DNA of 64,000 nt from an uncultured Bacilli bacterium (GCA_944363565.1 CALVUI010000002.1:206408-270407); one strand, 5' to 3'; shown: positions 24,345 through 56,562, counted from the first letter of the stretch. Made by a program: numbers and translations. The notes: generated by a model from the sequence alone, not told the origin.

Positions 24345-26123
24345 ATGGAAAACATCCGCCACGTGGAGGGTTTTGACCCCCGATATCCCCGTCCTTCCTT
24401 TGCCCGCAAGGATTACCGTCTCCTCGATGGGATTTGGGGCTTCGCCTACGATGACGAAGACCAGGGCCTCAGGAAGAAGTGGTACCGCAACGCCCCGGAG
24501 AACAAACTCCAAATCCGGGTCCCCTACGTCTACCAATCCGAGAAATCCGGGATCGGTAACCCCGAGCACCACCGGGTGGTCTGGTATTTCCTCAAAACCG
24601 AGATCAAGAAAAAGGCCCAAAGGAACGTCCTTTTGAACTTCGGGGCCGTCGACGATAGCTGCATGGTCTTCATCAACGGCCATCTGGTCGGGACCCACGA
24701 GGGGGGCTATAACGCCTTCGCCTTCGACATAACCGATGCCCTCAAGAACAGCGGGATGACGGAGATCGCCATCCGGGTCGAGGACGACCTATCGACCGAC
24801 AAGCCGCGGGGCAAGCAGTCCTGGCGCGACAAGCCCTGGGGCTGCTGGTACGTCCCCTATACCGGGATCTACCGTTCGGTTTACCTCGAATACGCCCCCG
24901 CCACCCGCTTGAAAAGCGTCCGCTTCAAGGCCGCCGAAGGGAAAGATTACGCCGAGATGGCCTACGAAATCGAGAATCCCTGCCCCGAGATGGAACTCGA
25001 GGCCATCGTGACTTTCAAAGGCCAATACATCAGCCGCTTGACCATCGAAAACCCCCGCAAATCCGGGGTGGCCGCCATCGATATCAGGACCGAGATCGGC
25101 AGCGATTTCGGGCGCGGCCTCTGGTCCCCGGATTCGCCCGACCTCTATGAGGTGAAGCTTTTGCTCTCTTCCAAAAACGGGATCGATGAGGTGACTTCCT
25201 ACTTCGGCCTCCGTTTCTTCAGGGCGGTCAAGGACTCCTTTGTTTTGAACCGCAACCCCATCTATCTGAAGATGGTCATGGACCAGGGCTTCTTCAAGGA
25301 AAGCGGGCCGACCTATCAGAGCTTCGAAGACATCATGCGCGAGGTCAAGCTCATCAAGCAGATGGGCTTCAACGGGGTCAGGATGCACCAGAAGATCGAA
25401 GACGACCGCTTCTATTATTGCTGCGACATCGTCGGCCTCCTCTGCACCTTGGAAATGCCTTCCCCCTATAGCTATTCCCAAAATACCGTGAAACGGGTGA
25501 CCAAAGAATGGACCGAGGCCTTGCTTAGCAACTACAACCATCCTTCGATCGTCATGTACATGCCCCTCAACGAATCCTGGGGCGTCCCCGACATCACCCA
25601 TGACGCCGGGCAGCAAAGCTTTGCCTGCTCCCTCTACCACGTGAGCAAAGCCCTCGACGATAGTCGCCTATGCATCAGCAACGACGGCTGGGAGCACGTC
25701 CTAACCGACGTCATCACCCTCCATAACTACGACCAGGAACCCAGTAGCCTCAAGGACTTCTACGCCGACATGGACCGGGTCTTGGACAATCTCGGGCAAC
25801 CCAAATACACGCAAAGCCGCCTTGTCTTCTCCAACGGTTACCATTATGAAGGCCAACCCATCTTCATCGACGAGTTCGGGGGCATCGGCTTCAATGCCTC
25901 GAAGCAGGGTTGGGGCTATGGCCTCGTGAGCGACGGGAATACCTTCGAAGAACGGTTCAAGGGTCTGATTGATGCCATTAGGAGCAACAAACGGATCGCC
26001 GGTTATTGCTGGACCCAATTGACCGATACCTACAGCGAGCAAAACGGTCTGCTCGACGAAAACAGAAAACCGAAGATTCCCCTCGAAGACATATCTAAAA
26101 TAATTAACGGTGAAGATCACTAA
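24345..26123 (+). CDS. glycoside hydrolase family 2 enzyme (beta-glucuronidase / beta-galactosidase / beta-mannosidase-like)
   Basis: GH2 sugar-binding domain (NGHLVGTHEGGYNAFAFDITD), TIM-barrel with NESWG acid/base region; 592 aa. Confidence 0.8.
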   Translation: MENIRHVEGFDPRYPRPSFARKDYRLLDGIWGFAYDDEDQGLRKKWYRNAPENKLQIRVPYVYQSEKSGIGNPEHHRVVWYFLKTEIKKKAQRNVLLNFGAVDDSCMVFINGHLVGTHEGGYNAFAFDITDALKNSGMTEIAIRVEDDLSTDKPRGKQSWRDKPWGCWYVPYTGIYRSVYLEYAPATRLKSVRFKAAEGKDYAEMAYEIENPCPEMELEAIVTFKGQYISRLTIENPRKSGVAAIDIRTEIGSDFGRGLWSPDSPDLYEVKLLLSSKNGIDEVTSYFGLRFFRAVKDSFVLNRNPIYLKMVMDQGFFKESGPTYQSFEDIMREVKLIKQMGFNGVRMHQKIEDDRFYYCCDIVGLLCTLEMPSPYSYSQNTVKRVTKEWTEALLSNYNHPSIVMYMPLNESWGVPDITHDAGQQSFACSLYHVSKALDDSRLCISNDGWEHVLTDVITLHNYDQEPSSLKDFYADMDRVLDNLGQPKYTQSRLVFSNGYHYEGQPIFIDEFGGIGFNASKQGWGYGLVSDGNTFEERFKGLIDAIRSNKRIAGYCWTQLTDTYSEQNGLLDENRKPKIPLEDISKIINGEDH

Positions 26124-26976
26124 AGCCAAGGAACTAGGCCTCCCGATTTCTAGAAGGGGCGTTTTGGCCTTGGCTTTGACCTACCACAAACTACCCCTCT
26201 TCAAATTGTCACTTCTGGCCTTCCTCTTTTTCTCGCCGGTCCTGGCCTATTTTGCCTACCACCTGATCGCCGAAGGAGCCATCATGCTCCAGTATCAAGG
26301 GGAGGCGACGGCCCAATGGACGGAACTGCTTTCCTTCCGCCGCTGGTCGTATCTTGCCATCATTCCCACTTATCTCTTGGCCGCGGTTTACCTTTCGGGG
26401 GCCATCCGGGTCTACCGCCGCTTCGCCTTCGGGGAAGGCTACATCCTCAAGGACGACTTCCTCGAGGGGATCAAAGACAACTGGAAGGGGAACCTCCTAA
26501 GCGGCCTCTTCTTCGGGGTTCTTTCATATCTCTCCTATTTCCTCATTTCCCTCTTCTCGAGCCCCGAGGCCCTTTTCCTCCATTACGGCCTCCTCATCGT
26601 CTACTTCGTCCTCCTGATGTTCTTCTCGGTGGCCTTCTTCCTTACCGTTTGCCTGAGGGATATCTACACCAATACCTTCTTCGGCTACATCAAAGGGGCG
26701 GTTTCTTTATTCATTGCCTATCTTCCTTCATCCGCCCTCATCTATTTGATGTTGGTTTTGCCTCTCGCTCTCTTTATTTTCCTAAGCGGCGTCATCCCGA
26801 CCGGCTTCTGTCTAATTGCCTACTTTATTCTCGTCCTCCTCTATGCCTTCTTCGGCTATTCATTGGCCTATCTATCCGCTTTCCTCCTCTACGCTAGAGC
26901 GGCCGACGAAGCCATCAACAAGACCCAATTCCCTTCCGAATACCGCAAGGGCCTATACAAAGGTGACAACCCGTGA
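26110..26976 (+). CDS. polytopic membrane protein, DUF624/YesL-like
   Basis: 288 aa, 6 or more TM helices; overlaps GH2 by 14 nt and the ABC ATPase by 4 nt. Confidence 0.55.
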   Translation: MKITKAKELGLPISRRGVLALALTYHKLPLFKLSLLAFLFFSPVLAYFAYHLIAEGAIMLQYQGEATAQWTELLSFRRWSYLAIIPTYLLAAVYLSGAIRVYRRFAFGEGYILKDDFLEGIKDNWKGNLLSGLFFGVLSYLSYFLISLFSSPEALFLHYGLLIVYFVLLMFFSVAFFLTVCLRDIYTNTFFGYIKGAVSLFIAYLPSSALIYLMLVLPLALFIFLSGVIPTGFCLIAYFILVLLYAFFGYSLAYLSAFLLYARAADEAINKTQFPSEYRKGLYKGDNP

Positions 26977-27641
26977 GTGACTACGTCTTAAAGGATCTAT
27001 CCTTCTCCTATCCGCCCAAGAAGAAGGGCGAAACCCCAACCAAGGTTTTCGAAAACCTATCCCTAACCTTCGACCAAGGGGAATTCATCTTCCTCGAGGG
27101 GAGTTCGGGCTCCGGGAAAACAACTCTTCTCCGTCTTCTGGCCGGACTCTTGGATCCCGATAATGGGACCTTCATGAACAAAGGCGAAAACCTCTTCGAA
27201 TTCAAAACCCAATCCCGGGACCTCGGTTATTGCTTCCAAGAAGCCTTCCTTTATCCCTTCGCCACGGTCTACGGGAACATCTACATGGCCCTCAATGGTT
27301 TCGGATTATCTCGTCTCGAGAAGGACAAACTCATAAAGGAGATCATCAAGGACACCGATCTCTTGCCCCTCCTCAACTACAAGCCCAAACAACTAAGCGG
27401 CGGCCAAGCCAAGACCGTGGCCCTCTGCCGGGCCCTCATCAGAAAGCCCTCCTTGCTCCTGGCCGACGAGCCTTTCGCCGGGACCGACGAACGGCTGAAA
27501 GATCGGTTACGGCAAAAGATGTTCAGGATCTGCAAGGATAACCACACTTCCGTCATCTACGTCAGCCACGACATCAAGGAGAGCTTGGGTTTTGATTCCC
27601 GTTACCGCCTCGAAGACGGAAACCTCATCAAAATCATCTAA
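26973..27641 (+). CDS. stand-alone ABC transporter ATP-binding protein
   Basis: Walker A GSSGSGKTTLL, signature LSGGQAKT, Walker B LLLADEP, H-loop VSHD; 222 aa. Confidence 0.85.
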   Translation: MSDYVLKDLSFSYPPKKKGETPTKVFENLSLTFDQGEFIFLEGSSGSGKTTLLRLLAGLLDPDNGTFMNKGENLFEFKTQSRDLGYCFQEAFLYPFATVYGNIYMALNGFGLSRLEKDKLIKEIIKDTDLLPLLNYKPKQLSGGQAKTVALCRALIRKPSLLLADEPFAGTDERLKDRLRQKMFRICKDNHTSVIYVSHDIKESLGFDSRYRLEDGNLIKII

Positions 27642-27653
27642 TAAGACCAAGAG

Positions 27654-27680
27654 AAAACGGGACCGCGATGGTCCCGTTTT
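27654..27680. terminator. bidirectional rho-independent terminator (convergent ABC ATPase / lipoprotein genes)
   Basis: Perfect 11-bp stem AAAACGGGACC-GCGAT-GGTCCCGTTTT with A/T runs on both sides. Confidence 0.8.
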
Positions 27681-27700
27681 CCGTAGGAGGATGATGGGCG

Positions 27701-29608
27701 CTAGGCAATCTTGAATCCGGTGTAGGTAGTCGGTTCCCCTTGGCAATAAAGGCCTAGATGGGTCGGGGCAGTGCTGATACCGCTCACGGTCCTCGAGCCG
27801 ATCTTGCTGTAGGCTCCCGCCCTCAAGGTAGCCTCGAATGTGGCCGAATCTCCGGCCATCGTGACCTTCACTTCGAGATCGAAGCCATCGGCCGGATGGA
27901 CGGCGCTTCCGTCGGCCCAGATATCGTGCCAGCCGAGGTCGGCGCCGCCGATGGTCCCGGTGATTTGGATGCAACGGATCTCGTGGGGCCGATCGGAGTC
28001 CGCGTATTGGGCGTAGACGATGACGAAGTCATTGGGTCCGGCGTAATAGGCGAGGTAGCCGAACATCAATTCCTTGGTGGCGTTCCCGGTCGTGGTCCCT
28101 TTGATGTGGCCACTTAGGGTATAGGAATTACCGACTTCCACGGGCTTACCGACGAAACCGGCCTTCCAGTTGGAGTTCTCGACGACAATGGAATCCCCGC
28201 TTTCCTCGAAGGTCGTGGGATTTCCGCCCGGGGCCAGAACCTGCCAGTCGGTCTTGATTTCTTCCTTTTCGAAGACGATGTTGCTGAAGGTCGCAACATC
28301 GCCGTTGCTATAGACGCCGGCATAGGCCGAGGGGCCGAAGCTACCGGTCATCGAGGTCGAACCGACCTTGACGGTCGACCCGGCAGTGACGTTGGCGGTC
28401 GCGGTGACACCGCTATTGGTGATTTGGACGCTGACGGAGAGACTGAGGCCATCGGCCGGGGCGACATGACAGCCATCCATCCAGATGGGACTGGGATAAG
28501 TGACCGCTCCGTTGACGGAGACGGCCGGTTGGATGGAGGTCAGGTCGCTAGGACGACCGGCACCGTTGGCCTTCCATTCGGCATAGTAGGCGATCCAGTT
28601 CTCGGCATCCTGGTAATAGGCGACGATCCCCACGGCGACGTCGTGGTCGATCGGGAGGGCGTCAATCGTCCCCTTGATGTCGGCCTTGACGGTATAGGCG
28701 TTGCCTAGCTCATTCGCGGGCTTGACCACGAAGTTCTTGAGGTGGTCGTTGTTGCTGATCTTGACGGAGTCACTAGAGGGTTGCCCATAGGCAAACTCGG
28801 CCCCGGCATTGACGACCTCGAAGCCCTTTTCGAAACCATCATAGGCGATTTCATCCCCTAGGGTCTTGGTAGCCTTGCTGCCGCTAAGGTAATCCATGTG
28901 GAAGGGGGTGCTTTCCACGTCCTTGATCGAGAGGACGAAGGCCCCATAGGGATCGACCTTGGTCATCTTCCCTTCATAGGTGAGGATGTCGTCGGCGTTG
29001 GCCTTAAGGACGACCGAAGAATCGCCTTGGGTCAGGCGGACTTCTTCGTCGGCCTTCAGATAACCCGGCAGCTTGATCGAGACATCGAGGTCAACATAGA
29101 CCGGATTGGGGTCGCAGCTATAGGTGATGACCAAACTACTGATCGTCGTCTCCTCGAAGGCCTCCAAGTTGAAGTAACTCGGGGAGCCGATGACCTCGGT
29201 CGGGACTTCGTTGACCGGAAGCTTGACGGGGACAAGGGCCCCGGCCTCACTCCCGAAGGAGAGGGCCAAACTTCCCTCATAGGAAATGGTGATCCCCTTG
29301 ATCCCGGTGATGGGATCGCTGTTGGAAAGGCTCCCGCCCCGATTGAGGAGGGCGTGTCCGGCCTCCGGCTTTTCCCCGAGGCCTTCATAGACGAACTTGA
29401 CCTTCCCTTGCTTGGTGTTGCTGAGCAAGACCTGTTCCTTGGTCCCGGCTTCCGGGGCGTTGTCGGCACTGAGGGTGAAGGTATAGCCCTCGTCGGCTCC
29501 CGCCACGACGGGGTCATTCCCATAGGCCGAAGCGCAGGCGATCGCGGCCACCATCCCGGTCGCTAGTAAGCCCACGCCCATGATTTTGGCAAAACTACTC
29601 TTTTTCAT
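27701..29608 (-). CDS. secreted lipoprotein with repeated beta-sandwich-like (carbohydrate-binding?) domains
   Basis: Start at MKKSSFAKIMGVGLLATGMVAAIACASAYG (lipobox AIAC), AAAGGAGA RBS; shares W/YY-x-D-x-N-[YWF] repeat-domain signatures with the 954-aa neighbour. Confidence 0.7.
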   Translation of the reverse strand: MKKSSFAKIMGVGLLATGMVAAIACASAYGNDPVVAGADEGYTFTLSADNAPEAGTKEQVLLSNTKQGKVKFVYEGLGEKPEAGHALLNRGGSLSNSDPITGIKGITISYEGSLALSFGSEAGALVPVKLPVNEVPTEVIGSPSYFNLEAFEETTISSLVITYSCDPNPVYVDLDVSIKLPGYLKADEEVRLTQGDSSVVLKANADDILTYEGKMTKVDPYGAFVLSIKDVESTPFHMDYLSGSKATKTLGDEIAYDGFEKGFEVVNAGAEFAYGQPSSDSVKISNNDHLKNFVVKPANELGNAYTVKADIKGTIDALPIDHDVAVGIVAYYQDAENWIAYYAEWKANGAGRPSDLTSIQPAVSVNGAVTYPSPIWMDGCHVAPADGLSLSVSVQITNSGVTATANVTAGSTVKVGSTSMTGSFGPSAYAGVYSNGDVATFSNIVFEKEEIKTDWQVLAPGGNPTTFEESGDSIVVENSNWKAGFVGKPVEVGNSYTLSGHIKGTTTGNATKELMFGYLAYYAGPNDFVIVYAQYADSDRPHEIRCIQITGTIGGADLGWHDIWADGSAVHPADGFDLEVKVTMAGDSATFEATLRAGAYSKIGSRTVSGISTAPTHLGLYCQGEPTTYTGFKIA

Positions 29609-29756
29609 GGTTCTCCTTTTTGTAAGCGCTTCCAACGCCTTCCGCCCCAAAGACTGACGACGGGGGAACGTTTTCTGACGCAAGTCCATTCTAAGGGGGC
29701 CATATAAGGGCCTTAATGCCACAAGCCTAGGCTCTTATACAATTTGGCACCATGAA

Positions 29757-29797
29757 TGAAAAACGCCGCCCGGCTTGGCCGGGTCGGCGCTTTTTGG
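29757..29797. terminator. strong GC hairpin / terminator between the two large surface-protein genes
   Basis: AAAAAC-GCCGCCCGGC-TTGG-CCGGGTCGGCGC-TTTTT. Confidence 0.75.
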
Positions 29798-29812
29798 TGT
29801 TTAGGCTATTAG

Positions 29813-32677
29813 TTACTTGGCCTTTTTGTTGCGTTGACGCATATAGAGGTAGACGCCAAGACCAACGAGGAGAAGGACGCCGATCCCCCCGAAGACGAGG
29901 CCGAGGATGAGGCCGAGGTTTTCGTTTTCGGGTTCGGTCGGAGTGACGTCGGTACCGCCAGTCGAGGTGCTGCTTTCGCCCTCTCCGGTCGCCGGCTTTT
30001 CGGCAACCGTGATGTCGTATTCGATCGGGTCGGCTTCGTTGCCCCAGTCATCGATGCAGGTAACGCTGACATGGTAGGCCCCGAGCTTTTCGGCCGTGAA
30101 GGCATTGGAGACCAGGGTCACGGGATTATCAGTCGGATCGGTGACGTTGACGATGGCGTTCAAAGGATCGTAGTTGCTATTGGAGGCGGTGTAGATCGGA
30201 AGACGGACACTATCCCCTAAGTAGGCCTCGGTGACCCGGGTCCCGACTTCGGCGATGACCGGCTTTTCGTTATAGGAGTAGACCCGTTCGTCGACCCCGA
30301 GGGCGAAGTCCTTGAAGGTCGCGGAGACGTTGGAGATGTTGAAGCCGCTCTTGGCTCCGCTTAGCCGTCTAGCCGATAGACCCGGGTATTCGCCCTGGTA
30401 GACCGGGGCGAAGGTCCCGCCGACATAGACGGAGATGGTATCGCCTTCGATATGGGCTTCGAGCTTGTTGTCGGCCCCTTCGAACTGGATCCCGACTTCC
30501 CTCTCGCCCCATTCGGGCGGGATGATCTGGCCATTGATGCGGACCGTGGTGTTGACGTTGGTGGTCGAACCGGCCCAACGGCTGAACCAGACGAAGACGT
30601 AGTTGTTGCTGTCGACGTAGTAGGGGACAAGACCGACCTTGTGCTCGCTGGCGGTCACTTCGGAAACATTGACCGTGGCCCCGCACCAGAAGTCGGTCTT
30701 TTCGTTGCTGATGAGGGCATTGGTCTGCTGCCAGACGGTCCCGCCATCGAGCTTCCCGGTGACGGTCCCGTTTTCCTCATCGATGGTCCAGGTATCGGGA
30801 CGGGGGCCGTTCAGGCTCCAATCCCCTTCCTGGACGGTGCTGTTGGGAAGGAAGCCGGTATAGGTAAGGCTATTGAGGCTCCCGCCCTGGCCTTCAAAGA
30901 AGAAGCCGGTGGCTAGAGCTTCGGAGAAGTCGAAGTCGTTGAGGACGAAGCCTTCGACGACAGAGGTTCCGTCAAGGCTGACATTGAGGACGCCCCTCTT
31001 CAGTTCGGTGGAAAGTTCATGGGGAGCCAAGGCATCGAACCCTTCGGGGAGGGCATTGGTGGTCGGGGTTTCCACTCCGTTCACGCAGACATAGACGGTG
31101 ATGGCGGACTTGCCCAAAGCGACCCTGACGTAATTGTCGACATCTACCAAGAAGGCATAGAGACCGTATTCCTGGCCATCCTGCAGAGCCGCGAAGGTGG
31201 CGCTGACCGAGATATTGCCGACATAGCGAGTAGAGAAATAAAGTCCGGCCACTCCTTCCTGGTCGCCGCTTTTGACGGCCAGATCATCGACGGTGTAGGT
31301 CCCGCCTTCATAGGAGAAGACGCTATCGTCGTCGGTGGCCGACTTGACATTGACAAGCTGGCCACCGACCGAGGCCACCCGCCAGTCGAAGGCCTGGTAT
31401 TGGATGGAGGCGGTTTCGTAGGTGAAGGTGACGTTCATGCCGCTGACGGCCGTCCCGATCATGTTAGAAGAGGCAAAGGTGGCATTGGAAGCAGTCAAGA
31501 CCGTGGCCCGGTCGTTTTCGAGATAGACCGAGATGGTGTTGCCCTTCTTTTGGGCAATGATGGTGATATTGCCATCTTGGTCGGCTTTTTGCGCCGATTC
31601 ACCAAGTTCCAGGGATTCATAGATCGGGGTTTGGTTCATGGTGCCCCCGGCCCCGTAGACGGTGACGAGGCCTTCGATGTAGAGGGTCCTCTTACCGCCC
31701 AGATCAAGGATATAGGCGACTGCGTAGTTGGTTTCGTCGTTGTACCAGGCGACCAGGCCGATCGCCGACTTGTCGACCAAGGCGGTTTCCGGGAAGGTGG
31801 CCTTCAGCTCATAGTTCCCCTCATAGGGGTTCTTGCCAAGGGCCATGGTCGAGGCCACGCCACTCGCGGTGGTTTCGTCAATCGCGTAGGTCTTGTCGTT
31901 GATGGTCCAATTCCCGGAAGCGGATTTGGCGACGATCCCCGGAGTGACTTCGTGGTAGAGGTCGGTCCTCGCATTTTCGGCCACTTCAAAGGAAGTGATC
32001 TCGAGGTTCTCGTTGTAGGTATAGATCCCGACCTTCGAGGGTTTGGTCGAATACTTGGGAAGATCGCGGAAGCCATAGAAACCGACCTTGTTGCCGTTGA
32101 TGTAGGCGCTGAATTCGTCGGTATCCCCGGCCGCGCTCCTTTCCTTCTTGACCTCGAAGGTCCAGGAGGAGTCGGGGGAGACGGCAAAGCCCTCGTTGGC
32201 CCCGTCCATCCAGGCGTCGTTCCACTCGGCTTCGACGAAGCCCCCGTCCTTGTAGACGACCGGGGCCTTGCCGTCGATCCGGCCGGTGAACTCGACGACC
32301 CGCATCCCGCTCGGCCTTTCGGTCGGGCTCCATTCCATGTAGACCACCAGGTAGTTGTTGGCGTCCAAATACCAAGGGACAAGGCCGATCTGGATGTTCT
32401 TGGTCACGGGCCAGGCCGTTTCGCCCTTGCCCTCGATCTTGACGCTGTAGTCGCCTAAATAACTATCGGCTTCATAAAGGAGGAAGTTGTCGCGCATCCC
32501 GGTTTGGGAAGCGGAGGCAAGGATCGAATCCTCGCTTATCGTGTAATAACTCGAGACGTCTCCGCCGGTAGAAAGCGACCAGTCGGCGGCCTTGAAGGCC
32601 GCTCTCGGGGCGGCATTAGCCCCCGAGACGCCGGTCAAGGAAGCGAGGGCCAAGACGGGGATCAACAATCCGTTCAT
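29813..32677 (-). CDS. large cell-surface protein: signal peptide, 4 or more copies of a ~110-aa repeat domain, C-terminal TM anchor with basic tail
   Basis: MNGLLIPVLALASLTGVSGANA signal; repeats containing GLVPWYLDANNYLVVY / GLVAWYNDETNYAVAY / GLYAFLVDVDNYVRVA / GLVPYYVDSNNYVFVW; C-terminal hydrophobic segment LGLILGLVFGGIGVLLLVGLGVYLYM then RQRNKKAK. Confidence 0.75.
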   Translation of the reverse strand: MNGLLIPVLALASLTGVSGANAAPRAAFKAADWSLSTGGDVSSYYTISEDSILASASQTGMRDNFLLYEADSYLGDYSVKIEGKGETAWPVTKNIQIGLVPWYLDANNYLVVYMEWSPTERPSGMRVVEFTGRIDGKAPVVYKDGGFVEAEWNDAWMDGANEGFAVSPDSSWTFEVKKERSAAGDTDEFSAYINGNKVGFYGFRDLPKYSTKPSKVGIYTYNENLEITSFEVAENARTDLYHEVTPGIVAKSASGNWTINDKTYAIDETTASGVASTMALGKNPYEGNYELKATFPETALVDKSAIGLVAWYNDETNYAVAYILDLGGKRTLYIEGLVTVYGAGGTMNQTPIYESLELGESAQKADQDGNITIIAQKKGNTISVYLENDRATVLTASNATFASSNMIGTAVSGMNVTFTYETASIQYQAFDWRVASVGGQLVNVKSATDDDSVFSYEGGTYTVDDLAVKSGDQEGVAGLYFSTRYVGNISVSATFAALQDGQEYGLYAFLVDVDNYVRVALGKSAITVYVCVNGVETPTTNALPEGFDALAPHELSTELKRGVLNVSLDGTSVVEGFVLNDFDFSEALATGFFFEGQGGSLNSLTYTGFLPNSTVQEGDWSLNGPRPDTWTIDEENGTVTGKLDGGTVWQQTNALISNEKTDFWCGATVNVSEVTASEHKVGLVPYYVDSNNYVFVWFSRWAGSTTNVNTTVRINGQIIPPEWGEREVGIQFEGADNKLEAHIEGDTISVYVGGTFAPVYQGEYPGLSARRLSGAKSGFNISNVSATFKDFALGVDERVYSYNEKPVIAEVGTRVTEAYLGDSVRLPIYTASNSNYDPLNAIVNVTDPTDNPVTLVSNAFTAEKLGAYHVSVTCIDDWGNEADPIEYDITVAEKPATGEGESSTSTGGTDVTPTEPENENLGLILGLVFGGIGVLLLVGLGVYLYMRQRNKKAK

Positions 32678-32695
32678 AGATATCTCCTTTCCGAA

Positions 32696-35062
32696 TCAGA
32701 TGTTGGAAATGGTTTTCCCGCCGAGGCCATAAGCCTCGAGGGCGTTGATCTGTTCTTCCTCACTCATGGTGAGGCTTTCGATGGAGTAGGTCCCGAAGCA
32801 GGACTTGAACTGGATGATGGGTTCGATGTTGGCGATGCCGCTCCAGGGGAGCCAGGTGCCGACCGAACTGAAGTTGAAGTCGGCCACGGTCGTGGCCTCG
32901 GGTCCGAGGGCCCGGTACTTGAAGCCCATGCGGCCGTCGTAGTCGTTGCTGAGTTTGGTGGCGTTTTCGATGAGGAGGGCGGCCGAGCGGTAGAAGTCAT
33001 CCCCGGTCTCGAGATACATCCGATAGAGGGCGAAGAAGATGTAGGCCGCGTAGTTGTCGGCGCTGCTATGGCCGGTGGCGATGAAGGAGAAGCCGATGAC
33101 CCCACCGTCTTCGAAGGTGTTGATCTCGCGATTGGAGATTTGGCTCGGGACCGCGAAGTCGTAGACATAGACCCAGCTCATGGCCGAGACCGAGGCGTGC
33201 TCGGCGGCCTCCAAATACTTCTCGTCCCCGCTTAATTCATAGGCGGCTTGGAAGCAATACATGGCGTAAACCGCGGCTTCCTTGTCGACGGTGTTGGGGT
33301 TGTCCGGAGTCCCGCCGACGTACTTGCCTTTGTTTGAATAGAGTTCCTGGTAGCTATATTCGGCGGCCTCCAAGGCCGAGGTTTTGTATTTCTCGTCGCC
33401 GGTGAGTTCGTACGTCTTCCCGAGGAAGCGGACGGCGACCGGGGTATTGAGCTCGCTCTTGCCTTGGTAGGCGACATTGGAGGTATCGGTGCAGACGGTC
33501 CCGTTGAGGTTGTAGGCCCGGTTAAAGGAACCGTTCTCGTTTTGGACGGCGGTCAGGTTGTCGGCGATCTTGGTGATGGCGTCCAGCCACTGGGGATGTT
33601 CGATCCCAAGGCCCTTCTCCATCAGATAGCCATCGAGGATCCCCTCGGCCGCGTCGACCATGCATCTCAGGAAGGTCGGATAATCGCGCCTGGTCCCGCC
33701 GGCGATCCCATTTCCCGGATCCCACCAGATGATGGGGAAGTAGTTCCCCATGATGGTGCGACTCGTCCAAAAGTCGAGGGACCTGAGGCCCTTGTTGATG
33801 AAGTCGCTATCGCCGTGGCTACGGCCATAACGGAGCATCTGGTAGGCGGCGGCCGCCTGCTGTCCGACGAAGCCGGACTGGGAGGCATAGCCTTGGTCGA
33901 CCGAGCCATCGGGCAGGGTCAGGGACCAGGGAAGGCCCCCATAGACGTCATTGGTCCCGAAGGTCCGGTATTCCTGGCCAAATAGATATAGGTTGTCCTC
34001 GTAGATCTGCTCCATGTCGACTTGGGGGTAGGCGATTTCCTGGGATCTAAAGGCTTCCTTGTAGGTCGCGACCATCGCGTCGTTGTAGGAGGCTTCGTTC
34101 CGGAGGATGATCCCGGCCTTGTAGGTATGGGCAAAGCCCTTTTCGAGGGGGTGGTAACGCTTGGCCCAGCCTTGGCCCGAGTCGTAGGTGTTGGGGCCTT
34201 CGCTGCTGGGGTAGCAGAAGTCGACCCCGACATAGGGGGTAATCTGGAAACCGACCGAGCCGTATTCGAACTTCTCGGAGATCTCCCCGTTGGCCCCGCC
34301 TCCGATGTCGCCGTTGACGGAAATCTCGGGTTCGAAGTGATATAAGCCGATCGAGTAGCCGCTATTTTGGCGGATGAAGGAAAGGGGCATCCCGGTCCTC
34401 GTTTCCTTGACCATGACCTTGCCGGTCAGATTGAGGTTGCTGGCAATGGAGCCACTCCGCATTTCCGAGGTATCTTTGTAGATGATGGCGGGAATGAAAT
34501 AGGTAAAATCCTCGTAATTCGAGGAGCCTTCTGCGTTGATAATGAGCATTTCGCTTTGGAAACCGGCGTCTTCGCCGCCCTTTTCCAAAACCTCAACCGT
34601 CCTTTCAAAAGCAAAGGAATTGCTGCCTTCGGGGACGAAGTAGGCGTCGGTGACGGCGAGGCGGCTCCCTTCCTCGGTGCTGACATCGGCCCGGCCGATA
34701 TAACCAAAAGAGGTTTGCTCGATATTGGAGTAGGTCCGGGTGTAGGTATCCTCGTCGTAGGTGGCAAGGATGCCCGAGGAATCACTACGGACGTTGATGG
34801 TGACCGGGCTCTCGGCCTTGTAGGCCGTCACCCCTTCGTAGACGTATTCGACAGAGTAGCCGCCTTCGGCCTTCTCGACGAAGCGGAGGGCGGTCTTGCC
34901 CAAGGTGATGGCGTTGTCGCCAAGGCTTCCGTTAGGGGCATCGGGCAGGTCATAAGAGATGGAAGAAGAGGACGAGGACGACTCGCTCGAGATGGCGGGA
35001 GTCGTCGGTCCGCAGGCCACTAAGAGGAAGGCGAGAGGGATAACTAAACTGCTTCTTTTCAT
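32696..35062 (-). CDS. lipoprotein, putative (alpha/alpha)6-barrel glycoside hydrolase / polysaccharide-degrading enzyme
   Basis: Lipobox LLVACG; N-terminal beta-rich region then a Trp/Tyr-rich helical C-terminal half resembling unsaturated-glycosyl hydrolase / heparinase-type barrels; family not assignable by eye. Confidence 0.5.
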   Translation of the reverse strand: MKRSSLVIPLAFLLVACGPTTPAISSESSSSSSSISYDLPDAPNGSLGDNAITLGKTALRFVEKAEGGYSVEYVYEGVTAYKAESPVTINVRSDSSGILATYDEDTYTRTYSNIEQTSFGYIGRADVSTEEGSRLAVTDAYFVPEGSNSFAFERTVEVLEKGGEDAGFQSEMLIINAEGSSNYEDFTYFIPAIIYKDTSEMRSGSIASNLNLTGKVMVKETRTGMPLSFIRQNSGYSIGLYHFEPEISVNGDIGGGANGEISEKFEYGSVGFQITPYVGVDFCYPSSEGPNTYDSGQGWAKRYHPLEKGFAHTYKAGIILRNEASYNDAMVATYKEAFRSQEIAYPQVDMEQIYEDNLYLFGQEYRTFGTNDVYGGLPWSLTLPDGSVDQGYASQSGFVGQQAAAAYQMLRYGRSHGDSDFINKGLRSLDFWTSRTIMGNYFPIIWWDPGNGIAGGTRRDYPTFLRCMVDAAEGILDGYLMEKGLGIEHPQWLDAITKIADNLTAVQNENGSFNRAYNLNGTVCTDTSNVAYQGKSELNTPVAVRFLGKTYELTGDEKYKTSALEAAEYSYQELYSNKGKYVGGTPDNPNTVDKEAAVYAMYCFQAAYELSGDEKYLEAAEHASVSAMSWVYVYDFAVPSQISNREINTFEDGGVIGFSFIATGHSSADNYAAYIFFALYRMYLETGDDFYRSAALLIENATKLSNDYDGRMGFKYRALGPEATTVADFNFSSVGTWLPWSGIANIEPIIQFKSCFGTYSIESLTMSEEEQINALEAYGLGGKTISNI

Positions 35063-35065
35063 GGC

Positions 35066-35965
35066 TTACTCCTTTAAACCGGTCATGGCGATGCCGTCGA
35101 CGAAGAAGCGTTGGCAGGCCACATAGAGGACGAAGGTCGGCAGCAGGGCGGTGATGGCCCCGGCCATCAGGAGGGTGTATTGCTTGTTGTGGCTGGTCGA
35201 TAGACCGCTCACCAAAAGCTGGATGGTGAAGAGATCGGGGTTGGTTCCGACGTACAGGAGGGGCGTCATGTAGTCGTTGTAGGCCCCGTTGAAGGCGAGG
35301 ATGAACTGGGTCAAAACCGCCGGTATCGAGAGAGGCAAGATGATGGTGAGGAAGATCCTAAGACGCCCGGTCCCGTCGATCTCCGCCGCTTCTTCGAGTT
35401 CCTTGGGCAGGGTCTTGAAGTACTGGTGCAGGAAGAACATGGCCCCGGCTGAACCGAACATTCCGGGGATGATGATGGGGAGGGGCGTCCCGTACCAACG
35501 GTAGAAGTTGACGAAGAGGACGTAACTCGGCATCAGGGTGATGACACCCGGGATGACCATGGTGGCGAGGATCAGGTAATAGACGATCCGTCTCCCCGGC
35601 CACTTCATGCGGGCGCAACTGTAGGCGCAGAGGGCGCTGCAGAAGGTCCCGATGATGGTGGTGGGCACCGTGTAGAGGAAGGTATTGAGGAAGGCGCCCC
35701 AGACGTTGTTTTCACTAAAGAGCTTGTCGTAGTTTCCGATATCGACGGGGGAGGGAATCCACTTGAAGTCGAAGATGTTCTCGGGGCTGGTGAAGGAAGT
35801 GGAAACGGCGAAGATGAAGGGGATGAGGATGAGGAGGGCGAAGAGGACCAAGACGAGGTACATCCCGGTCTGCGATAAGACAAAACGGACCTTTTCCTTC
35901 TTCTTGGCGTTGGAGCGCCTGATCTCGGGGCTCAAGGGGGCCCGGACTTTCTTTTTAGTTATCAT
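35066..35965 (-). CDS. carbohydrate ABC transporter permease (CUT1, MalG-like)
   Basis: 6 TM helices, EAA-like loop (EAAEIDGTGRLRIFLTIILP); start placed at MITKKK (35965). Confidence 0.85.
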   Translation of the reverse strand: MITKKKVRAPLSPEIRRSNAKKKEKVRFVLSQTGMYLVLVLFALLILIPFIFAVSTSFTSPENIFDFKWIPSPVDIGNYDKLFSENNVWGAFLNTFLYTVPTTIIGTFCSALCAYSCARMKWPGRRIVYYLILATMVIPGVITLMPSYVLFVNFYRWYGTPLPIIIPGMFGSAGAMFFLHQYFKTLPKELEEAAEIDGTGRLRIFLTIILPLSIPAVLTQFILAFNGAYNDYMTPLLYVGTNPDLFTIQLLVSGLSTSHNKQYTLLMAGAITALLPTFVLYVACQRFFVDGIAMTGLKE

Positions 35966-36863
35966 AGTGGACCCAGAACCTCGAAACGCCGAACTGAATG
36001 GCGGACAAAGCCAAGATGATGAGGCCGAGGATGATGCCCATCGCGCAGGCATAACCAGCCTCGTAGTTGAATTGGTTGGTCGTGTATTTGTAGATGTACC
36101 AGACCGGCATGATCGACCAGTCGGTGATCTGATCGCCCCGCATGACCTGGAAACGGGTGAAGTCTTGGAAGGAGCCGGAAATGCCGGTCAAAAGGATGTA
36201 GAAGGTGACCGGGGAGACCGAGGGCAAAGTGATGTGGAAGAACTGCTGGACGGCATTGGCCCCGTCGACCGCGGCCGCTTCATAAAGGGCCTTGGGGACG
36301 TTCTTCAAGGAGGCATAGAGGAGGAGGATCGAAGTCCCGAGCCCCGACCAGACCCCCATCGCGATCATCGAGGGGAAGAAGAGGTCTTCGCCGAGGAAGT
36401 TGATGGTCCCCCAGCCGAAGACCTGGCCCAGTTGGGCAATGAGGCCGTAGAGGGGTTGGTAGACCCAACTCCAGACAAACGTGATGGCCACGGCCCCGCA
36501 GACGGTCGGGATGTAAAGGATCGATCTGAAGACCGAGGAGAAGCGTTTGACCTTGGTCATGAAGACCGAAAGGATGAGGGCCAAGACGATGCCGATCGGA
36601 ACCCCGATGGCGTTGATCAAAGCGTTGACCAAGGACCTAACGAAGAACTGGTCATGGAAGGCGTTGATGTAGTTTTCGAAGCCGATGAACTTGAAGGAGT
36701 TCGCGGTCGCGAAGGTATAGTCGGTGAAGGAAATGATGAGGGCATATATCAAGGGGAAGGCCAAGAAGAGGAGGAGGCCGATGACGAGGGGAGCGGCAAA
36801 GGCCATGCCCTCGAGGGCTTCGATCTTCTTCTTGGTTTTTCGTGTAATTTTGGCGCGGACCAT
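35955..36863 (-). CDS. carbohydrate ABC transporter permease (CUT1, MalF-like)
   Basis: 6 TM helices, EAA loop YEAAAVDGANAVQQFFHITLP. Confidence 0.85.
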   Translation of the reverse strand: MVRAKITRKTKKKIEALEGMAFAAPLVIGLLLFLAFPLIYALIISFTDYTFATANSFKFIGFENYINAFHDQFFVRSLVNALINAIGVPIGIVLALILSVFMTKVKRFSSVFRSILYIPTVCGAVAITFVWSWVYQPLYGLIAQLGQVFGWGTINFLGEDLFFPSMIAMGVWSGLGTSILLLYASLKNVPKALYEAAAVDGANAVQQFFHITLPSVSPVTFYILLTGISGSFQDFTRFQVMRGDQITDWSIMPVWYIYKYTTNQFNYEAGYACAMGIILGLIILALSAIQFGVSRFWVHYDN

Positions 36864-36882
36864 CTAATTATCCCCGCAAAAC

Positions 36883-38325
36883 TTATAGATATTGATTGAC
36901 AGCCTTCCGGGCGGCGTCGATGAATTCATCGACCGTATAACGGGTGCTGGGGTCAGTGGAGAACAGGCGTTCCGAGGTCGTGTCGTAACCGAGTTCCTTC
37001 CACCTGATGTTGGCCCGGTACTGCCAGAGGCCATAGGACTGGTTCTGGGCCGACTCGACGAAGACGTCGTAGTTCTCGTAACCAAAGAGTTCCTTTTCCC
37101 TGGCCCTCACGTCATCGCTCTTGGCGAGTTCGTAGTAGCAGGGGATCTGGAAACCGGTGGCCGAAAGGATTTCCTGGCCCTCCGGGGAGGCGATGTATTC
37201 GACGAGCTTCCAGGCCGCTTCGATGTGCTCCGAGCCATTGTAGATGGCGTAGCCGACCGAGCCGCTGTACATGTTCTTGGTCGGATTGACCTCGAAGGCC
37301 GGGACATAGGCCACGTCCCAGTCAAAGCCAAGGGTCCTGAAACTAGTGACGTTCCAGCGTCCGGCGATCAAAGTCGAGATCTTCTGCATCGAGAAGAGGG
37401 TTTCGGCATCGGTCCCGGCCGTCCATTCGTTGGGCGGCATGATCTTGGTGGTCAAATAAGCATCCTGGAGGAATTGGTAGCCGCGCTTGAGGCCGTTGAT
37501 GTCTTTTTCTTCGGTCGGGAAGGCATCGCGTTCTTCGTTCAGGAAGTCGCCGCCGGCGCTCCAAACCAGGCCTTCCGGCCCAATGCCCCCGAGGGCATAA
37601 CGGCTGATGTTGCCATTGCTGTCGTATTTGGTGAGGGCTTCCCACATCTCGATGGCCTCATCGATGGTCATGATGCGGTCATCTGGCGGGTATTCGACAC
37701 CCATCTCGTCGAACTGGTCTTTGTTGTAGAACATGACGTAGGGGCCGACGTCCTTGGGCAAGGCCAGTTGGACCCCGGACCCGGCTTTCTGTTCGGCCGA
37801 ATTGTATTGGTAACGGGAGATGACGCTGGGGAACATCTCGTCGGTCTTCACCAAGGTGGAGGCTGCGATGTAGGGATTGAGGTTCACCATCTTGTTGAAA
37901 CCGGCCCAGGAAGTGAAGGCCCCGTCGGGGACCAGGAAAACGTCGGTGACGTTGCCGGCCACCAGGTTGTTGCCGTAGGTCTCTTCGTAGCTTCCTAGAA
38001 TCTGGAGGTCGACCGTGATCGTCGGATAACGGGCGTTGAAACCCCTAAGAAGGGCTTCGATGACGCTGCGTTCGACGGTGGCACCGGAAGAATCCCAGTG
38101 GGTCATGGAAATGGTGCAAGGCTCACCGGTATAGGAGTACTCATACCCGGCGGCGTCGTACTTCCCGAGGATGTAGTCGAGGTCGTCGATATCGACATCG
38201 ACCGAAGTTCCCGTATCATCGGGAACCGAAGTCGAAGCGGAAGCATTGGAATTGTAACAACCGGCCAGCGCGAGGATTCCGGTGGTCAGAAGGATGGGCA
38301 AACAGAGTTTTTTCAACATAGGCAT
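36883..38325 (-). CDS. extracellular solute-binding lipoprotein of the sugar ABC transporter (SBP family 1)
   Basis: Lipobox LALAGC; 480 aa periplasmic-binding-protein fold; first gene of the transporter/surface-protein operon. Confidence 0.85.
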   Translation of the reverse strand: MPMLKKLCLPILLTTGILALAGCYNSNASASTSVPDDTGTSVDVDIDDLDYILGKYDAAGYEYSYTGEPCTISMTHWDSSGATVERSVIEALLRGFNARYPTITVDLQILGSYEETYGNNLVAGNVTDVFLVPDGAFTSWAGFNKMVNLNPYIAASTLVKTDEMFPSVISRYQYNSAEQKAGSGVQLALPKDVGPYVMFYNKDQFDEMGVEYPPDDRIMTIDEAIEMWEALTKYDSNGNISRYALGGIGPEGLVWSAGGDFLNEERDAFPTEEKDINGLKRGYQFLQDAYLTTKIMPPNEWTAGTDAETLFSMQKISTLIAGRWNVTSFRTLGFDWDVAYVPAFEVNPTKNMYSGSVGYAIYNGSEHIEAAWKLVEYIASPEGQEILSATGFQIPCYYELAKSDDVRAREKELFGYENYDVFVESAQNQSYGLWQYRANIRWKELGYDTTSERLFSTDPSTRYTVDEFIDAARKAVNQYL

Positions 38326-42564: not shown

Positions 42565-43109
42565 GCCTTGTAGAGTCCGGAGGAGAGCCCGTTGATGACG
42601 GTCACGATCTTCTCGATCTTTTCCTTGTCGTAAATGACGAGGGGCTTGCTGACGAGGTCGCCGATCATCTTCTCGGCGGCCGAGGCGTTCTCCCTTTCCC
42701 CGATCGACTTCAGGGTCCGCTTCATCATGAACTTCGAAAAGAAGTCGAGCTTGTTGAGGTCGAAGCTCCCTTGGACCTGGTAGAAACGGACGTGGTACAT
42801 GTCGAGGAGGTTTTGGGAAATGAGGTCCTGCCGTCCCTCGGGACTAGGAAGGGCCATGCCGACCGAAAAGACGATGATGGGGATCCCTTCGAAACGTTCG
42901 TACTCGCTCAGGAATTCATTGAGGCCCTGGATGTTCCCGGCCTGGACGTTGCCTCCGAAGACCAGACACTCGGCCCCTTCGGCCTTCTTGACCCAGCCCC
43001 TCTTCAGGGGCAGGGCTTCCCCCGCCACCTGGCGGGCGATGTCTTCGGCGTACTTCTTGGTCGAGCCGGTCTTGCTATGATAGAAAACGATGGTCTTCAC
43101 GGGGGGCAT
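42561..43109 (-). CDS. flavodoxin-like fold protein
   Basis: TIVFYHSKTGSTKKYAEDIA FMN-binding loop; 182 aa. Confidence 0.6.
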   Translation of the reverse strand: MPPVKTIVFYHSKTGSTKKYAEDIARQVAGEALPLKRGWVKKAEGAECLVFGGNVQAGNIQGLNEFLSEYERFEGIPIIVFSVGMALPSPEGRQDLISQNLLDMYHVRFYQVQGSFDLNKLDFFSKFMMKRTLKSIGERENASAAEKMIGDLVSKPLVIYDKEKIEKIVTVINGLSSGLYKA

Positions 43110-56560: not shown

Positions 56561-56562
56561 CC

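Follow-up and report, generated by a model that had tools for sequence, protein, structure and literature searches.

In Bacteroides, SusE and SusF are surface proteins that are anchored by lipid, lack catalytic activity and consist of CBM-like beta-sandwich domains in tandem; their genes lie inside a utilisation locus beside those for a transporter and a surface enzyme, an arrangement to which the locus described here bears a likeness. The gpPUL, as defined by Sheridan et al. in 2016 (PMC5320581), groups one or more degrading enzymes with a carbohydrate ABC transporter and a transcriptional regulator; the gpPULs of Roseburia and Eubacterium rectale typically include an ABC importer and a regulator of AraC type, and binding there was ascribed to CBMs on wall-anchored enzymes. 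Here we analysed a window of 64,000 nt from an uncultured Bacilli bacterium. On balance we consider it probable that this window carries a gpPUL of a small-genome, Enteromonas-like gut bacterium of the order RFN20, for which identity and wall loss have been reported (PMC8035907, PMC7301438), and that the locus includes non-catalytic, membrane-anchored glycan-binding proteins.

Gene content and conservation of the locus

Six genes, all on the minus strand, were verified at positions 27701-38325 of the window in the layout given by the preliminary description. The first encodes a 480-aa lipoprotein SBP (36883..38325; lipobox LAGC) that matched SBP_bac_1 (E=4e-24) and SBP_bac_8 in Pfam and, weakly, GanS/MalE-type models in NCBIfam. 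It is followed by ABC permease 1 (302 aa; 35955..36863; BPD_transp_1; UgpA E=6e-27) and ABC permease 2 (~299 aa; 35066..35965; BPD_transp_1 E=5e-21, UgpE E=4e-27, MalG E=4e-23). An extracellular SBP of the SBP_bac_1 class, lipid-anchored as in Gram-positive bacteria, together with two BPD_transp_1 permeases whose best NCBIfam matches were UgpA/GlcT/MalF and UgpE/MalG/GlcU, corresponds to a CUT1-type sugar ABC importer (TCDB 3.A.1.1).

Downstream lie the genes for a 788-aa surface lipoprotein (32696..35062; lipobox LVAC), a 954-aa surface protein (29813..32677) and a 635-aa lipoprotein (27701..29608; lipobox AIAC), the last being identical to the public-collection entry P0081. The SBP, the two permeases, the 788-aa lipoprotein and the 954-aa protein are co-transcribed, with gaps of 3 nt between the permease and 788-aa genes and 18 nt between the 788-aa and 954-aa genes. 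The earlier view of an operon followed by the 635-aa lipoprotein gene held in its layout and coordinates; the latter gene is probably a transcription unit apart from the 954-aa gene, because a terminator-like GC hairpin with a T-run (29769..29783, minus strand) follows the 954-aa gene and the 635-aa gene is preceded by an RBS of its own. A strong terminator-like hairpin with a 13-bp stem (27652..27682, minus strand) separates the 635-aa gene from a convergent ATPase gene.

The anchors proposed for these proteins were all recovered. In addition to the three lipoboxes, the 954-aa protein has a signal-like N-terminal segment and, by hydropathy, a C-terminal hydrophobic helix ending in the basic tail RQRNKKAK. 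LPXTG is absent, the lone LPWSG in the 788-aa protein being internal, and no sortase-type C-terminal LPXTG was found in the 954-aa and 635-aa proteins or among the 150 family representatives considered below.

All related contigs examined share one gene order, running from the SBP through the two permeases to the 788-type and 954-type proteins, at identities of 37-60%, and the AraC regulator, furanosidase-type GH2, membrane protein and short ATPase of the adjacent genes were also syntenic in two of these lineages. Domain content and synteny across divergent relatives thus back the description of the region as a polysaccharide-utilisation-like locus with a CUT1 importer.

A repeated module related to CBM66

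The repeat reported for the two beta-rich proteins is real: in BLASTP, residues 32-233 of the 954-aa protein matched residues 454-635 of the 635-aa protein with an E value of 5.6e-19, far above chance. Its unit, however, spans about 170-200 aa rather than ~110 aa, and the motif thought to mark five or more copies, G-[LIY]-V-[PA]-[WY]-Y-x-D-x-[NE]-N-[YW], gave only three matches in its strict form, whereas profile searches detected six modules, four in the 954-aa protein and two in the 635-aa protein. Leave-out HMMs, trained without window sequences and without the module type being tested, recovered all six copies, the weakest being M3 (19.9 bits). The 788-aa protein, which had been counted among three bearers of the repeat, was searched and contained none; nor does the N-terminal part (230 aa) of the 635-aa protein form a module.

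Modules M1 (aa 30-238; 31964..32590, minus strand) and M4 (aa 622-800; 30278..30814, minus strand) of the 954-aa protein carry the motifs GLVPWYLDANNY and EWNDAWMDG, and GLVPYYVDSNNY, respectively. M1 is the best-conserved module type (53-67% identity in a comparison with four orthologues), its strongly conserved charged and aromatic motifs being RPxxMR and EWNDAWMDG; M4 showed 43-80% identity to its orthologues. Between them lie M2 (aa 250-430; 31388..31930, minus strand; 55 bits with a leave-out HMM), which is divergent, and M3 (aa 446-612; 30842..31342, minus strand; 84 bits with the full profile), the most divergent; both lack the M1 motifs and share only 25-34% identity with the corresponding modules of orthologues, whose overall identity is ~41%. 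An Ig-like stalk (aa 801-897), with sub-threshold matches to InlK_D3, PKD_4 and LapB-repeat models, and a low-complexity linker rich in Ser, Thr and Glu with the TM helix (aa 898-954) complete the protein (29816..30277, minus strand). Its orthologues retain the four modules and the TM helix. In the 635-aa protein, a region without a Pfam match (aa 26-261) precedes two modules (aa 262-452, nt 28253-28825; aa 454-635, nt 27704-28249; minus strand).

The AF2 model of a single repeat (M1; pLDDT 93) adopted a concanavalin-A-like jelly roll, and its Foldseek matches were confined to the ConA-like superfamily, including galectins, legume lectins, PL7, GH16 and CBM66 (4b1m; E=6.5e-5, TM 0.51/0.62). 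At the profile level, the module aligned over nearly its full length with the CBM66 crystal sequence 4azz (E=0.0026); the CBM66 comparison had Prob 60% and ~12% identity. HHalign related the modules to PF06439-type domains with Prob 98.2% and E=4e-14, and on protein P0143 the window profile covered residues 1469-1630, where the Pfam-validated PF06439 domain spans 1461-1629. The originally proposed signature motif proved to be a variant of the family's core beta-hairpin, GxxFRYxDxxNYY, seen in PF06439-type sequences. By these profiles and the predicted structure, the module is a highly divergent homologue of the DUF1080/PF06439 domain, DUF1080 and CBM66 being one domain under two names (PMC5673643), and represents an uncurated branch of a known carbohydrate-binding superfamily; the fold is not new.

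Taken at curated thresholds, the earlier statement that the repeat fits no named family holds to the letter: none of 32 modules reached a Pfam or NCBIfam cut-off, PF06439 matched neither these modules nor the full proteins in Pfam even at E≤10, the 954-aa and 635-aa proteins gave nothing in either collection, and the full-length proteins had no match among PDB sequences. The families named in advance as grounds for rejecting novelty (CBM6/35/32, FIVAR and Big) were likewise not matched at high significance, and the idea of novelty therefore survives, though weakened; to call the module a novel domain overstated the case, given its ConA-like fold and remote homology to PF06439/DUF1080.

Both the modules and CBM66, whose type is that of Bacillus subtilis SacC (4azz, 4b1l, 4b1m), share the ConA-like beta-jelly roll and a core hairpin of the form G-hydrophobic-hydrophobic-aromatic-x-Y-x-D-x-x-N-Y, and both occur as accessories on carbohydrate-active enzymes. 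The modules differ from CBM66 in being 20-40 aa longer, with an M1-type insertion that holds RPxxMR and WxDxWxDG, and in forming tandem arrays of four and two in proteins without a catalytic domain. The modules are putative carbohydrate binders; PF06439 includes enzymes (3-keto-disaccharide hydrolases), and homology is therefore no proof of binding. The known ligands of CBM66, fructan ends and xanthan side chains, are not implied for the window modules.

The wider module family comprised 1296 representatives (E≤1e-3), with fusions to CE2 esterases, to F5/8-type-C domains and to LamG_3 with a phosphoesterase, and the module also lies within a giant GH2/BNR_4 enzyme. Of the top 150 proteins, 130 contained 2-13 copies, 118 had signal-like N-termini, 40 had lipoboxes and 59 ended in a TM helix with a basic tail.

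The candidate glycan-cleaving enzyme and the divergent genes

For the 788-aa lipoprotein, no PDB sequence match, no sequence or profile match to 5no8/PL27 and no sequence-level family were found. Its AF2 model (pLDDT 91, pTM 0.91) combines a beta-sandwich with an (alpha/alpha)6 barrel, the architecture described for PL27 (PMC8377490). The closest structural match in Foldseek was the PL27 L-rhamnose-alpha-1,4-D-glucuronate lyase BACCELL_00875 (5no8; E=4e-10), followed by GH94, GH116, GH52, GH88, cellobiose 2-epimerase and GH76. These matches, which range over lyases, hydrolases, phosphorylases and epimerases, were weak (whole-chain TM 0.37-0.42; 8% identity to 5no8), and since GH94, GH116, GH52, GH88 and the epimerases matched nearly equally, they do not fix the reaction type or the family. 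The protein exceeded the cut-off for Pec_lyase PF09492 (PL10; 22.7 versus 22 bits), but only over a 39-aa stretch covering 39 of the 292 profile positions, which is probably why the homologue P0036 is called ‘pectate lyase' by NCBI; its profile reached Pel10A at E=0.015, the PL10 domain being (alpha/alpha)3 and the barrel predicted here (alpha/alpha)6. Many polar and aromatic residues are invariant among the 36 homologues; 788-type homologues also occur alone, without a transporter. Judged from the predicted fold, the protein is a candidate lyase or hydrolase acting on glycan.

On the other side of the locus, the gene for an AraC-family regulator (293 aa; 23404..24285, minus strand; AraC_binding and HTH_18/HTH_AraC), syntenic in relatives, is divergent from that of a cytoplasmic GH2 glycosidase (592 aa; 24345..26123, plus strand; Pfam GH2 domains) without a signal peptide. 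The NE acid/base motif of the latter is intact in translation (MPLNESWG), and its best PDB relatives were 7xyr (GH2_19; E=6e-72), 7sf2 and 9j6n (GH2_18 beta-D-galactofuranosidase; E=1e-45). By PDB sequence similarity it is closest to group III (the GH2_18/GH2_19 furanosidases) and of GH2_19 type; the enzymes of group III act as alpha-L-arabinofuranosidases or beta-D-galactofuranosidases, those of GH2_19 being mostly non-secreted (PMC12243196). The enzyme is probably an exo-glycosidase, and it offers a weak hint of an arabinofuranose- or galactofuranose-containing substrate. The hints from neighbouring genes conflict between lineages: a GH2_19-like neighbour occurs in three, whereas L009 lacks it and instead has a fucose-isomerase-like gene, a kinase, an aldolase and a glycyl-radical enzyme.

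The GH2 gene is followed by that of a polytopic membrane protein (288 aa; 26110..26976, plus strand), whose frame overlaps the GH2 and ATPase genes; it had no Pfam or NCBIfam match, and its position is conserved in L001-L005. Next comes a short ABC ATPase (222 aa; 26973..27641, plus strand; ABC_tran), syntenic in relatives, which resembles the N-terminal nucleotide-binding half of GlcV/UgpC/MalK, its best NCBIfam matches spanning positions 13-205 of ~355-aa importer NBDs, and lacks the C-terminal regulatory domain. It is the sole ATPase of the locus, where no ATPase of the MalK/MsmK type, with its C-terminal regulatory (TOBE) domain, was found, and it is a candidate energiser of the importer; a full-length MsmK may be encoded elsewhere in the genome, and the short ATPase, lying in the GH2 unit beside an uncharacterised membrane protein, may serve a different transporter.

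Proposed function and comparison with known loci

In the reading we favour, the 954-aa and 635-aa proteins would be non-catalytic surface glycan binders whose multivalent lectin-fold arrays hold polysaccharide at the cytoplasmic membrane. Tethering by lipid or a TM helix is proposed because most RFN20 genomes lack genes for peptidoglycan synthesis (mraY and murG; PMC7301438), leaving no wall for sortase. The 788-aa candidate enzyme would cut the bound glycan, the SBP would pass oligosaccharides to the permeases, powered by the adjacent short ATPase, and in the cytoplasm the GH2 would strip off arabinofuranosyl or galactofuranosyl residues, with AraC inducing both divergent units when product is present. 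Our leading guess for the substrate is a furanose-decorated plant or microbial glycan, for example of the arabinogalactan or arabinan type.

Given their size, repeats, membrane anchoring, Ig-like stalk and long linker, the two proteins could also be adhesins for host mucus, feed particles or other microbes that lie beside a sugar transporter by chance; lectin folds are common among adhesins, and related module arrays co-occur with Listeria-Bacteroides and FG-GAP repeats. We regard this as rather unlikely, given the tight, translationally close linkage of the genes and a gene order kept down to 37% identity, and glycan adhesion can in any case coexist with nutrient capture. It is unlikely, too, that the modules are themselves catalytic, as divergent DUF1080-type 3-keto-glycoside hydrolases or GH16/PL7-like jelly-roll enzymes, which would make the two proteins multi-catalytic. 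The name of PF06439 derives from 3-keto-disaccharide hydrolases, PL7 alginate lyases and a GH16 lichenase matched in Foldseek at E values similar to those of lectins, and the M1-type motifs are strongly conserved; yet 4 to 13 repeats per chain are rare for catalytic domains, the four modules of the 954-aa protein are very unlike one another, the closest sequence-level PDB match is a CBM, and elsewhere the module is appended in the manner of a CBM to true catalytic domains (CE2, GH2).

That such large, beta-rich, membrane-tethered proteins form a structural or protective coat of a wall-deficient cell, without a specific ligand, would suit the lack of mraY and murG in most RFN20 genomes and the frequency of C-terminal TM anchors in the family. 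Each gene, however, is present in a single copy, within a regulated sugar-uptake cluster with AraC; for a coat, linkage to a transporter and an (alpha/alpha)6 enzyme would hardly be expected to persist from one lineage to the next, and orthologues are rare (10 word-index matches in 5.8 billion clusters), which together make this very unlikely. Least probable of all, and by our estimate scarcely credible, is a new domain unrelated to known CBM or lectin families: the missed curated cut-offs, the lack of PDB sequence matches and a best Foldseek TM of only ~0.54 would accord with one, but the unambiguous ConA-like fold, the profile-level homology to PF06439/CBM66 and the shared hairpin speak against it.

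The favoured reading, of a gpPUL with membrane-anchored glycan binders, invites comparison with both kinds of described locus. To our knowledge, the proteins have no sequence relationship to SusE/SusF and the cell has no outer membrane, unlike SusE/SusF hosts; the beta-sandwich is ConA-like rather than of the SusE/F CBM-like type. The mark of a Bacteroidetes-type PUL, an adjacent pair of SusC (TonB-dependent transporter) and SusD (PMC5320581), is absent from all locus proteins. With the gpPULs of Roseburia and Eubacterium rectale the locus shares the complete trio, here a GH2 and a candidate (alpha/alpha)6 enzyme of predicted activity, an ABC importer and an AraC regulator. It differs from them in that the presumed depolymerase falls outside all curated families and in that binding would fall to dedicated putative binding proteins, which a lipid or a C-terminal helix tethers to the membrane, the lineage being mostly without peptidoglycan genes.

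Gene layout, importer and surface anchors

The sugar locus comprises six minus-strand genes, placed as in the preliminary description: a lipoprotein solute-binding protein (SBP; 36883-38325; SBP_bac_1 in Pfam and NCBIfam, lipobox LAGC), two BPD_transp_1 permeases (35955-36863 and 35066-35965), and three large surface proteins of 788 aa (32696-35062; lipobox LVAC), 954 aa (29813-32677) and 635 aa (27701-29608; lipobox AIAC). The best NCBIfam and Pfam matches of the two permeases were UgpA/E, MalF/G and GlcT/U, and with the SBP they make up a CUT1-type sugar importer. The 954-aa protein starts with a signal-like segment and ends in a hydrophobic helix with the basic tail RQRNKKAK; no LPXTG motif was found in the surface proteins of the locus, in agreement with the anchoring originally proposed. 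Intergenic gaps across the SBP, permease, 788-aa and 954-aa genes were 3-19 nt or the genes overlapped, whereas the 635-aa gene was separated from the 954-aa gene by 204 nt. Because a GC hairpin with a T-run also follows the 954-aa gene, and the 635-aa gene has its own ribosome-binding site (AAAGGAGAA) and a strong terminator, the transcription units are probably a five-gene operon and one separate gene. An Rfam scan of the window returned neither a riboswitch nor another RNA element.

The C-terminal TM region of the 954-aa protein (residues 898-954; window 29816-29986) gave a sub-threshold match to NCBIfam 'MyrrCad' (E 7.6e-4). A Ser/Thr/Glu-rich linker leading into a Gly-rich TM helix and a KK/RK tail is common to the 954-aa orthologues and remote relatives, and this pattern may be a recognisable sorting or anchoring signal of these lineages. 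Many long opposite-strand ORFs shadow the genes of the locus (for example, 31019-32458 on the plus strand), and elsewhere the pyruvate phosphate dikinase gene (45423-48113, plus) is overlapped on its opposite strand by a 780-aa ORF lacking a Pfam match (45312-47654, minus); these are probably high-GC artefacts rather than genes.

Extent, fold and kinship of the repeat module

A shared repeat is clearly present, since BLASTP aligned residues 32-233 of the 954-aa protein with residues 454-635 of the 635-aa protein (E 5.6e-19 over ~200 residues). Iterated HMM searches that included orthologues placed four modules in the 954-aa protein (M1-M4, N- to C-terminal; approximately aa 30-238, 250-430, 446-612 and 622-800) and a further pair in the 635-aa protein (aa 262-452 and 454-635). 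HMMs retrained without the window sequences, and without the module type being tested, recovered all six modules (M2 with 55 bits, M3 with 19.9 bits and the 635-aa pair with 25-51 bits). Taken together, the boundaries and this recovery define a unit of 170-200 aa, not the ~110 aa first estimated. The strict signature motif by which the repeat had been marked matched only three times, although the underlying repeat is real. Neither the 788-aa protein nor the first 230 aa of the 635-aa protein, both searched for a degenerate module, contained one, and the module is thus carried by two of the three large proteins and not by all three as had been claimed. Comparison of the 954-aa protein against itself by BLASTP revealed no internal repeats; the four modules have diverged beyond what pairwise comparison can detect and required profiles. 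Within the window, M1 is close to both 635-aa modules, the three making one subgroup (alignment z 16-33), while M2, M3 and M4 are related at the profile level only. Relative to orthologues of ~41% overall identity, M1 (53-57%) and M4 (43-49%) are far more strongly conserved than M2 and M3 (25-34%).

Pfam and NCBIfam yielded no model at threshold for any of 32 modules, and searches of Pfam, NCBIfam and PDB sequences with the three large proteins gave nothing useful. At these thresholds the repeat is indeed unassignable to a named family, as had been stated, but it has remote kin in a well-known group. AlphaFold2 predicted from the 32-sequence alignment a confident all-beta jelly roll (pLDDT 93, pTM 0.90), a fold that is already known: Foldseek against the PDB matched the model solely within the concanavalin-A (ConA)-like lectin/glucanase superfamily, including the thrombospondin C-terminal lectin domain, galectins, PL7 alginate lyases, GH16 lichenase, CBM66 (4b1m) and legume lectins. 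These matches reached E values of 1e-6 to 1e-4 and TM scores of at most 0.54, and none is a close structural relative.

Profile comparisons were more specific. The best PDB match of the module profile was the CBM66 of Bacillus subtilis levanase SacC (4azz; E 0.0026, near full length), to which HHalign assigned Prob 60%. Furthermore, in P0143, a public-collection protein taken from the best 150 of 1296 listed family representatives (protein E 5e-27), the window profile matched residues 1469-1630, coinciding with a genuine Pfam PF06439 domain (3keto-disac_hyd, formerly DUF1080) at residues 1461-1629. Profile-profile comparison of window-type modules with PF06439/DUF6250-type domains gave Prob 98.2% and E 4e-14, with the caveat that the latter domains had been gathered with the window profile itself, although they are independently validated by PF06439. 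CBM66 and DUF1080 are two names for one domain (PMC5673643). The signature G-[LIY]-V-[PA]-[WY]-Y-x-D-x-N-N-Y is a local form of the PF06439-type G-x-x-F-R-Y-x-D-x-x-N-Y-Y, and in the AlphaFold2 model it forms the central beta-hairpin (strands 66-76 and 79-87); the motif belongs to the structural core and is no obvious site for a ligand. Within the ConA-like clan, the module is therefore an uncurated, deeply branching lineage of the CBM66/DUF1080 group, and its fold is not new.

An exhaustive search of 1.84 billion cluster representatives detected 1296 proteins at E<=1e-3, 86 of them at E<=1e-30; cluster look-ups attached neither a taxon nor a function to the wider family. Among the best 150 representatives, 130 carry at least two module copies (maximum 13), 118 have a signal-like N-terminus, 40 a lipobox and 59 a C-terminal TM helix with a basic tail; LPXTG was found in none of the 150. 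On CE2 carbohydrate esterases the module lies at the C-terminal side; a 2981-aa GH2/BNR_4/SLH enzyme also carries it, and other partners of the module are F5/8-type-C, LamG_3 with phosphoesterase, and aBig_2 domains. In a set of public metagenome proteins (P0070, P0084, P0057 and P0125/P0127/P0131/P0118), module arrays comprise up to 13 copies and the proteins run to 3465 aa, and a C-terminal module pair is fused to ~1000-aa CE2 carbohydrate esterases. Accessory carbohydrate-binding modules behave in this way, which is the main, though indirect, argument for a binding role. The matched superfamily includes enzymes as well as lectins, and the modules could themselves be catalytic; set against the fusion pattern, we consider this less likely than binding. 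Membrane-anchored proteins bearing module arrays could also serve as adhesins or as a structural coat, and for the 954-aa and 635-aa proteins both alternatives likewise appear less likely than glycan binding.

The 788-aa lipoprotein, adjacent genes and relatives

Thirty-six homologues of the 788-aa protein were found. All are ~750-825 aa long, the lipobox cysteine is near-invariant in them, and numerous polar and aromatic positions do not vary, among them R466, D470, E473, R515, Y517, D587, N588, D593, K594, E595 and E722, with H665 almost unchanged. AlphaFold2 predicted for the 788-aa protein a beta-sandwich plus an (alpha/alpha)6 barrel (pLDDT 91, pTM 0.91). The top Foldseek match of its model was the PL27 L-rhamnose-alpha-1,4-glucuronate lyase BACCELL_00875 (5no8; E 4e-10), a weak match (TM 0.37-0.42, identity 8%) closely followed by GH94 phosphorylases, GH116, GH52, GH88, GH76 and cellobiose 2-epimerases. 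5no8 has the same two-domain layout as the 788-aa model (PMC8377490). Sequence and profile searches gave only helix-hairpin similarities to GH76 and PL10. Assignment to PL10 was rejected, as the Pec_lyase match (22.7 bits) spans only 39 residues; the same short match probably explains the NCBI label 'pectate lyase' on one homologue. In our view the 788-aa protein is a candidate enzyme for glycan cleavage, perhaps a lyase or a hydrolase, from a family not yet classified. Homologous genes also occur standing alone.

Convergent with the 635-aa gene are the genes for a cytoplasmic GH2 (24345-26123), a 288-aa polytopic membrane protein without family assignment (26110-26976) and a 222-aa MalK/UgpC/GlcV-like ABC ATPase (26973-27641), and the gene for an AraC regulator (23404-24285) is transcribed divergently from that of the GH2. 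The enzyme keeps an intact NE acid/base motif; its closest match is 7xyr (E 6e-72) and another near relative is the beta-D-galactofuranosidase 9j6n, both members of GH2 group III (GH2_18/19). Characterised members of this group are alpha-L-arabinofuranosidases and beta-D-galactofuranosidases, and GH2_19 is non-secreted in most cases (PMC12243196). The ATPase matched GlcV, UgpC and MalK only over their N-terminal, nucleotide-binding halves, and is thus a plausible truncated energiser of the importer. The 288-aa membrane protein gene overlaps the GH2 gene at one end and the ATPase gene at the other, and the trio is syntenic in relatives; its product may be a transporter subunit, a YesL-like accessory protein or a sensor. 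An FGGY-family sugar kinase (43709-45295, minus) and a TetR-domain protein (42771-43715, plus) lie just past mfd (38522-41956), ~5 kb upstream of the SBP gene.

The full arrangement (SBP, two permeases, 788-type, 954-type and two-module proteins on one side, the ATPase, membrane protein and GH2 opposite them, and AraC farther out) recurs in contigs whose orthologues show 60% and ~41% identity. Three further MAG contigs share the core of SBP, two permeases, 788-type protein and four-module 954-type protein. On L009, a JGI/NCBI Bacilli MAG contig (1-22463), the core consists of the SBP and two permeases with a 788-type protein of 820 aa and a four-module protein of 968 aa, and genes for a Fucose_iso_C isomerase, an FGGY kinase and an F_bP_aldolase flank it. 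Further along, a radical-SAM activase accompanies a PFL-like glycyl-radical enzyme, and a MalK-type ATPase of full length, with TOBE_2, is also encoded there. Within 10 kb no GH2 was found. These neighbours hint weakly at deoxy-sugar metabolism, and a fucose or rhamnose substrate is only a faint indication because it comes from a single lineage with ambiguous Pfam assignments.

Host setting and a proposed route of glycan capture

RFN20 and related small-genome Bacilli are uncultured and abundant in the animal and human gut. The relatives of the locus are MAGs, one of them named Candidatus Enteromonas, a genus of order RFN20 and family CAG-826 that includes a species with a 1.2-Mb genome of 57% GC (PMC8035907), a GC content close to that of the window. 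The lack of mraY and murG in most RFN20 genomes (PMC7301438) rationalises anchoring by lipids and TM helices instead of sortase or wall-binding domains.

The window also includes the chromosomal replication origin region (52641-63137), with mnmE (52641-53960, minus), yidC (54586-56310, minus), dnaA (57039-58466, plus), an ORF that is probably dnaN (58618-59739), a recF-like gene (60037-61104, plus) and gyrB (61104-63137, plus). Cumulative GC skew peaks at ~56-58 kb, where gene orientation also flips, and the sugar locus lies ~20-30 kb away from the origin. A low-GC island (6000-10500; GC 0.46 versus ~0.56) encoding an AAA_14/DUF4143 ATPase (7096-8340) and a Schlafen AlbA_2/HATPase_c_4 protein (9080-10408) may be a mobile or defence-related insertion.

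From fold, homology and synteny we infer a route in which the 954-aa and 635-aa proteins would act as multivalent, non-catalytic glycan binders on the cytoplasmic membrane, and the captured glycan would be depolymerised by the 788-aa lipoprotein. Oligosaccharides would then be imported via the SBP, permeases and short ATPase, and their furanosyl residues trimmed in the cytoplasm by the GH2, with both units presumably under AraC control. A Gram-positive polysaccharide utilisation locus (gpPUL) is defined by an enzyme, a transporter and a regulator (PMC5320581); the locus, with predicted enzyme activities, satisfies this definition, and the initial polysaccharide-utilisation-like reading is upheld. 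In function, the proposed binding proteins of the locus would parallel the SusE/F-type binding lipoproteins of Bacteroides.

A domain family of ~1,300 clusters outside every curated database can now be linked to CBM66/DUF1080, and a candidate lipoprotein-type enzyme family with ~36 known members emerges beside it. The locus would exemplify how a probably wall-deficient Gram-positive captures glycans at its surface with neither sortase nor anchoring in a cell wall. If binding and activity hold true, a CBM subfamily would be added to CAZy, perhaps along with a PL or GH family, and metagenome annotation of these lineages would improve. This extends the gpPUL paradigm and leaves current concepts standing. 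For CAZyme and gut-microbiome specialists, the value lies in the uncurated CBM-like family, the candidate enzyme family and membrane-tethered capture in a poorly known lineage.

It is possible, and in our estimate rather improbable as a whole, that the 788-aa protein founds a new CAZy family (PL or GH; beta-sandwich plus (alpha/alpha)6), that the tandem modules constitute a new CBM family or a deep CBM66 subfamily of new specificity, and that, with lipid and TM tethering, they form an undescribed 'wall-less' glycan-capture system characteristic of RFN20 and related reduced gut Bacilli, the functional equal of the Sus outer-membrane complex yet wholly on the cytoplasmic membrane.
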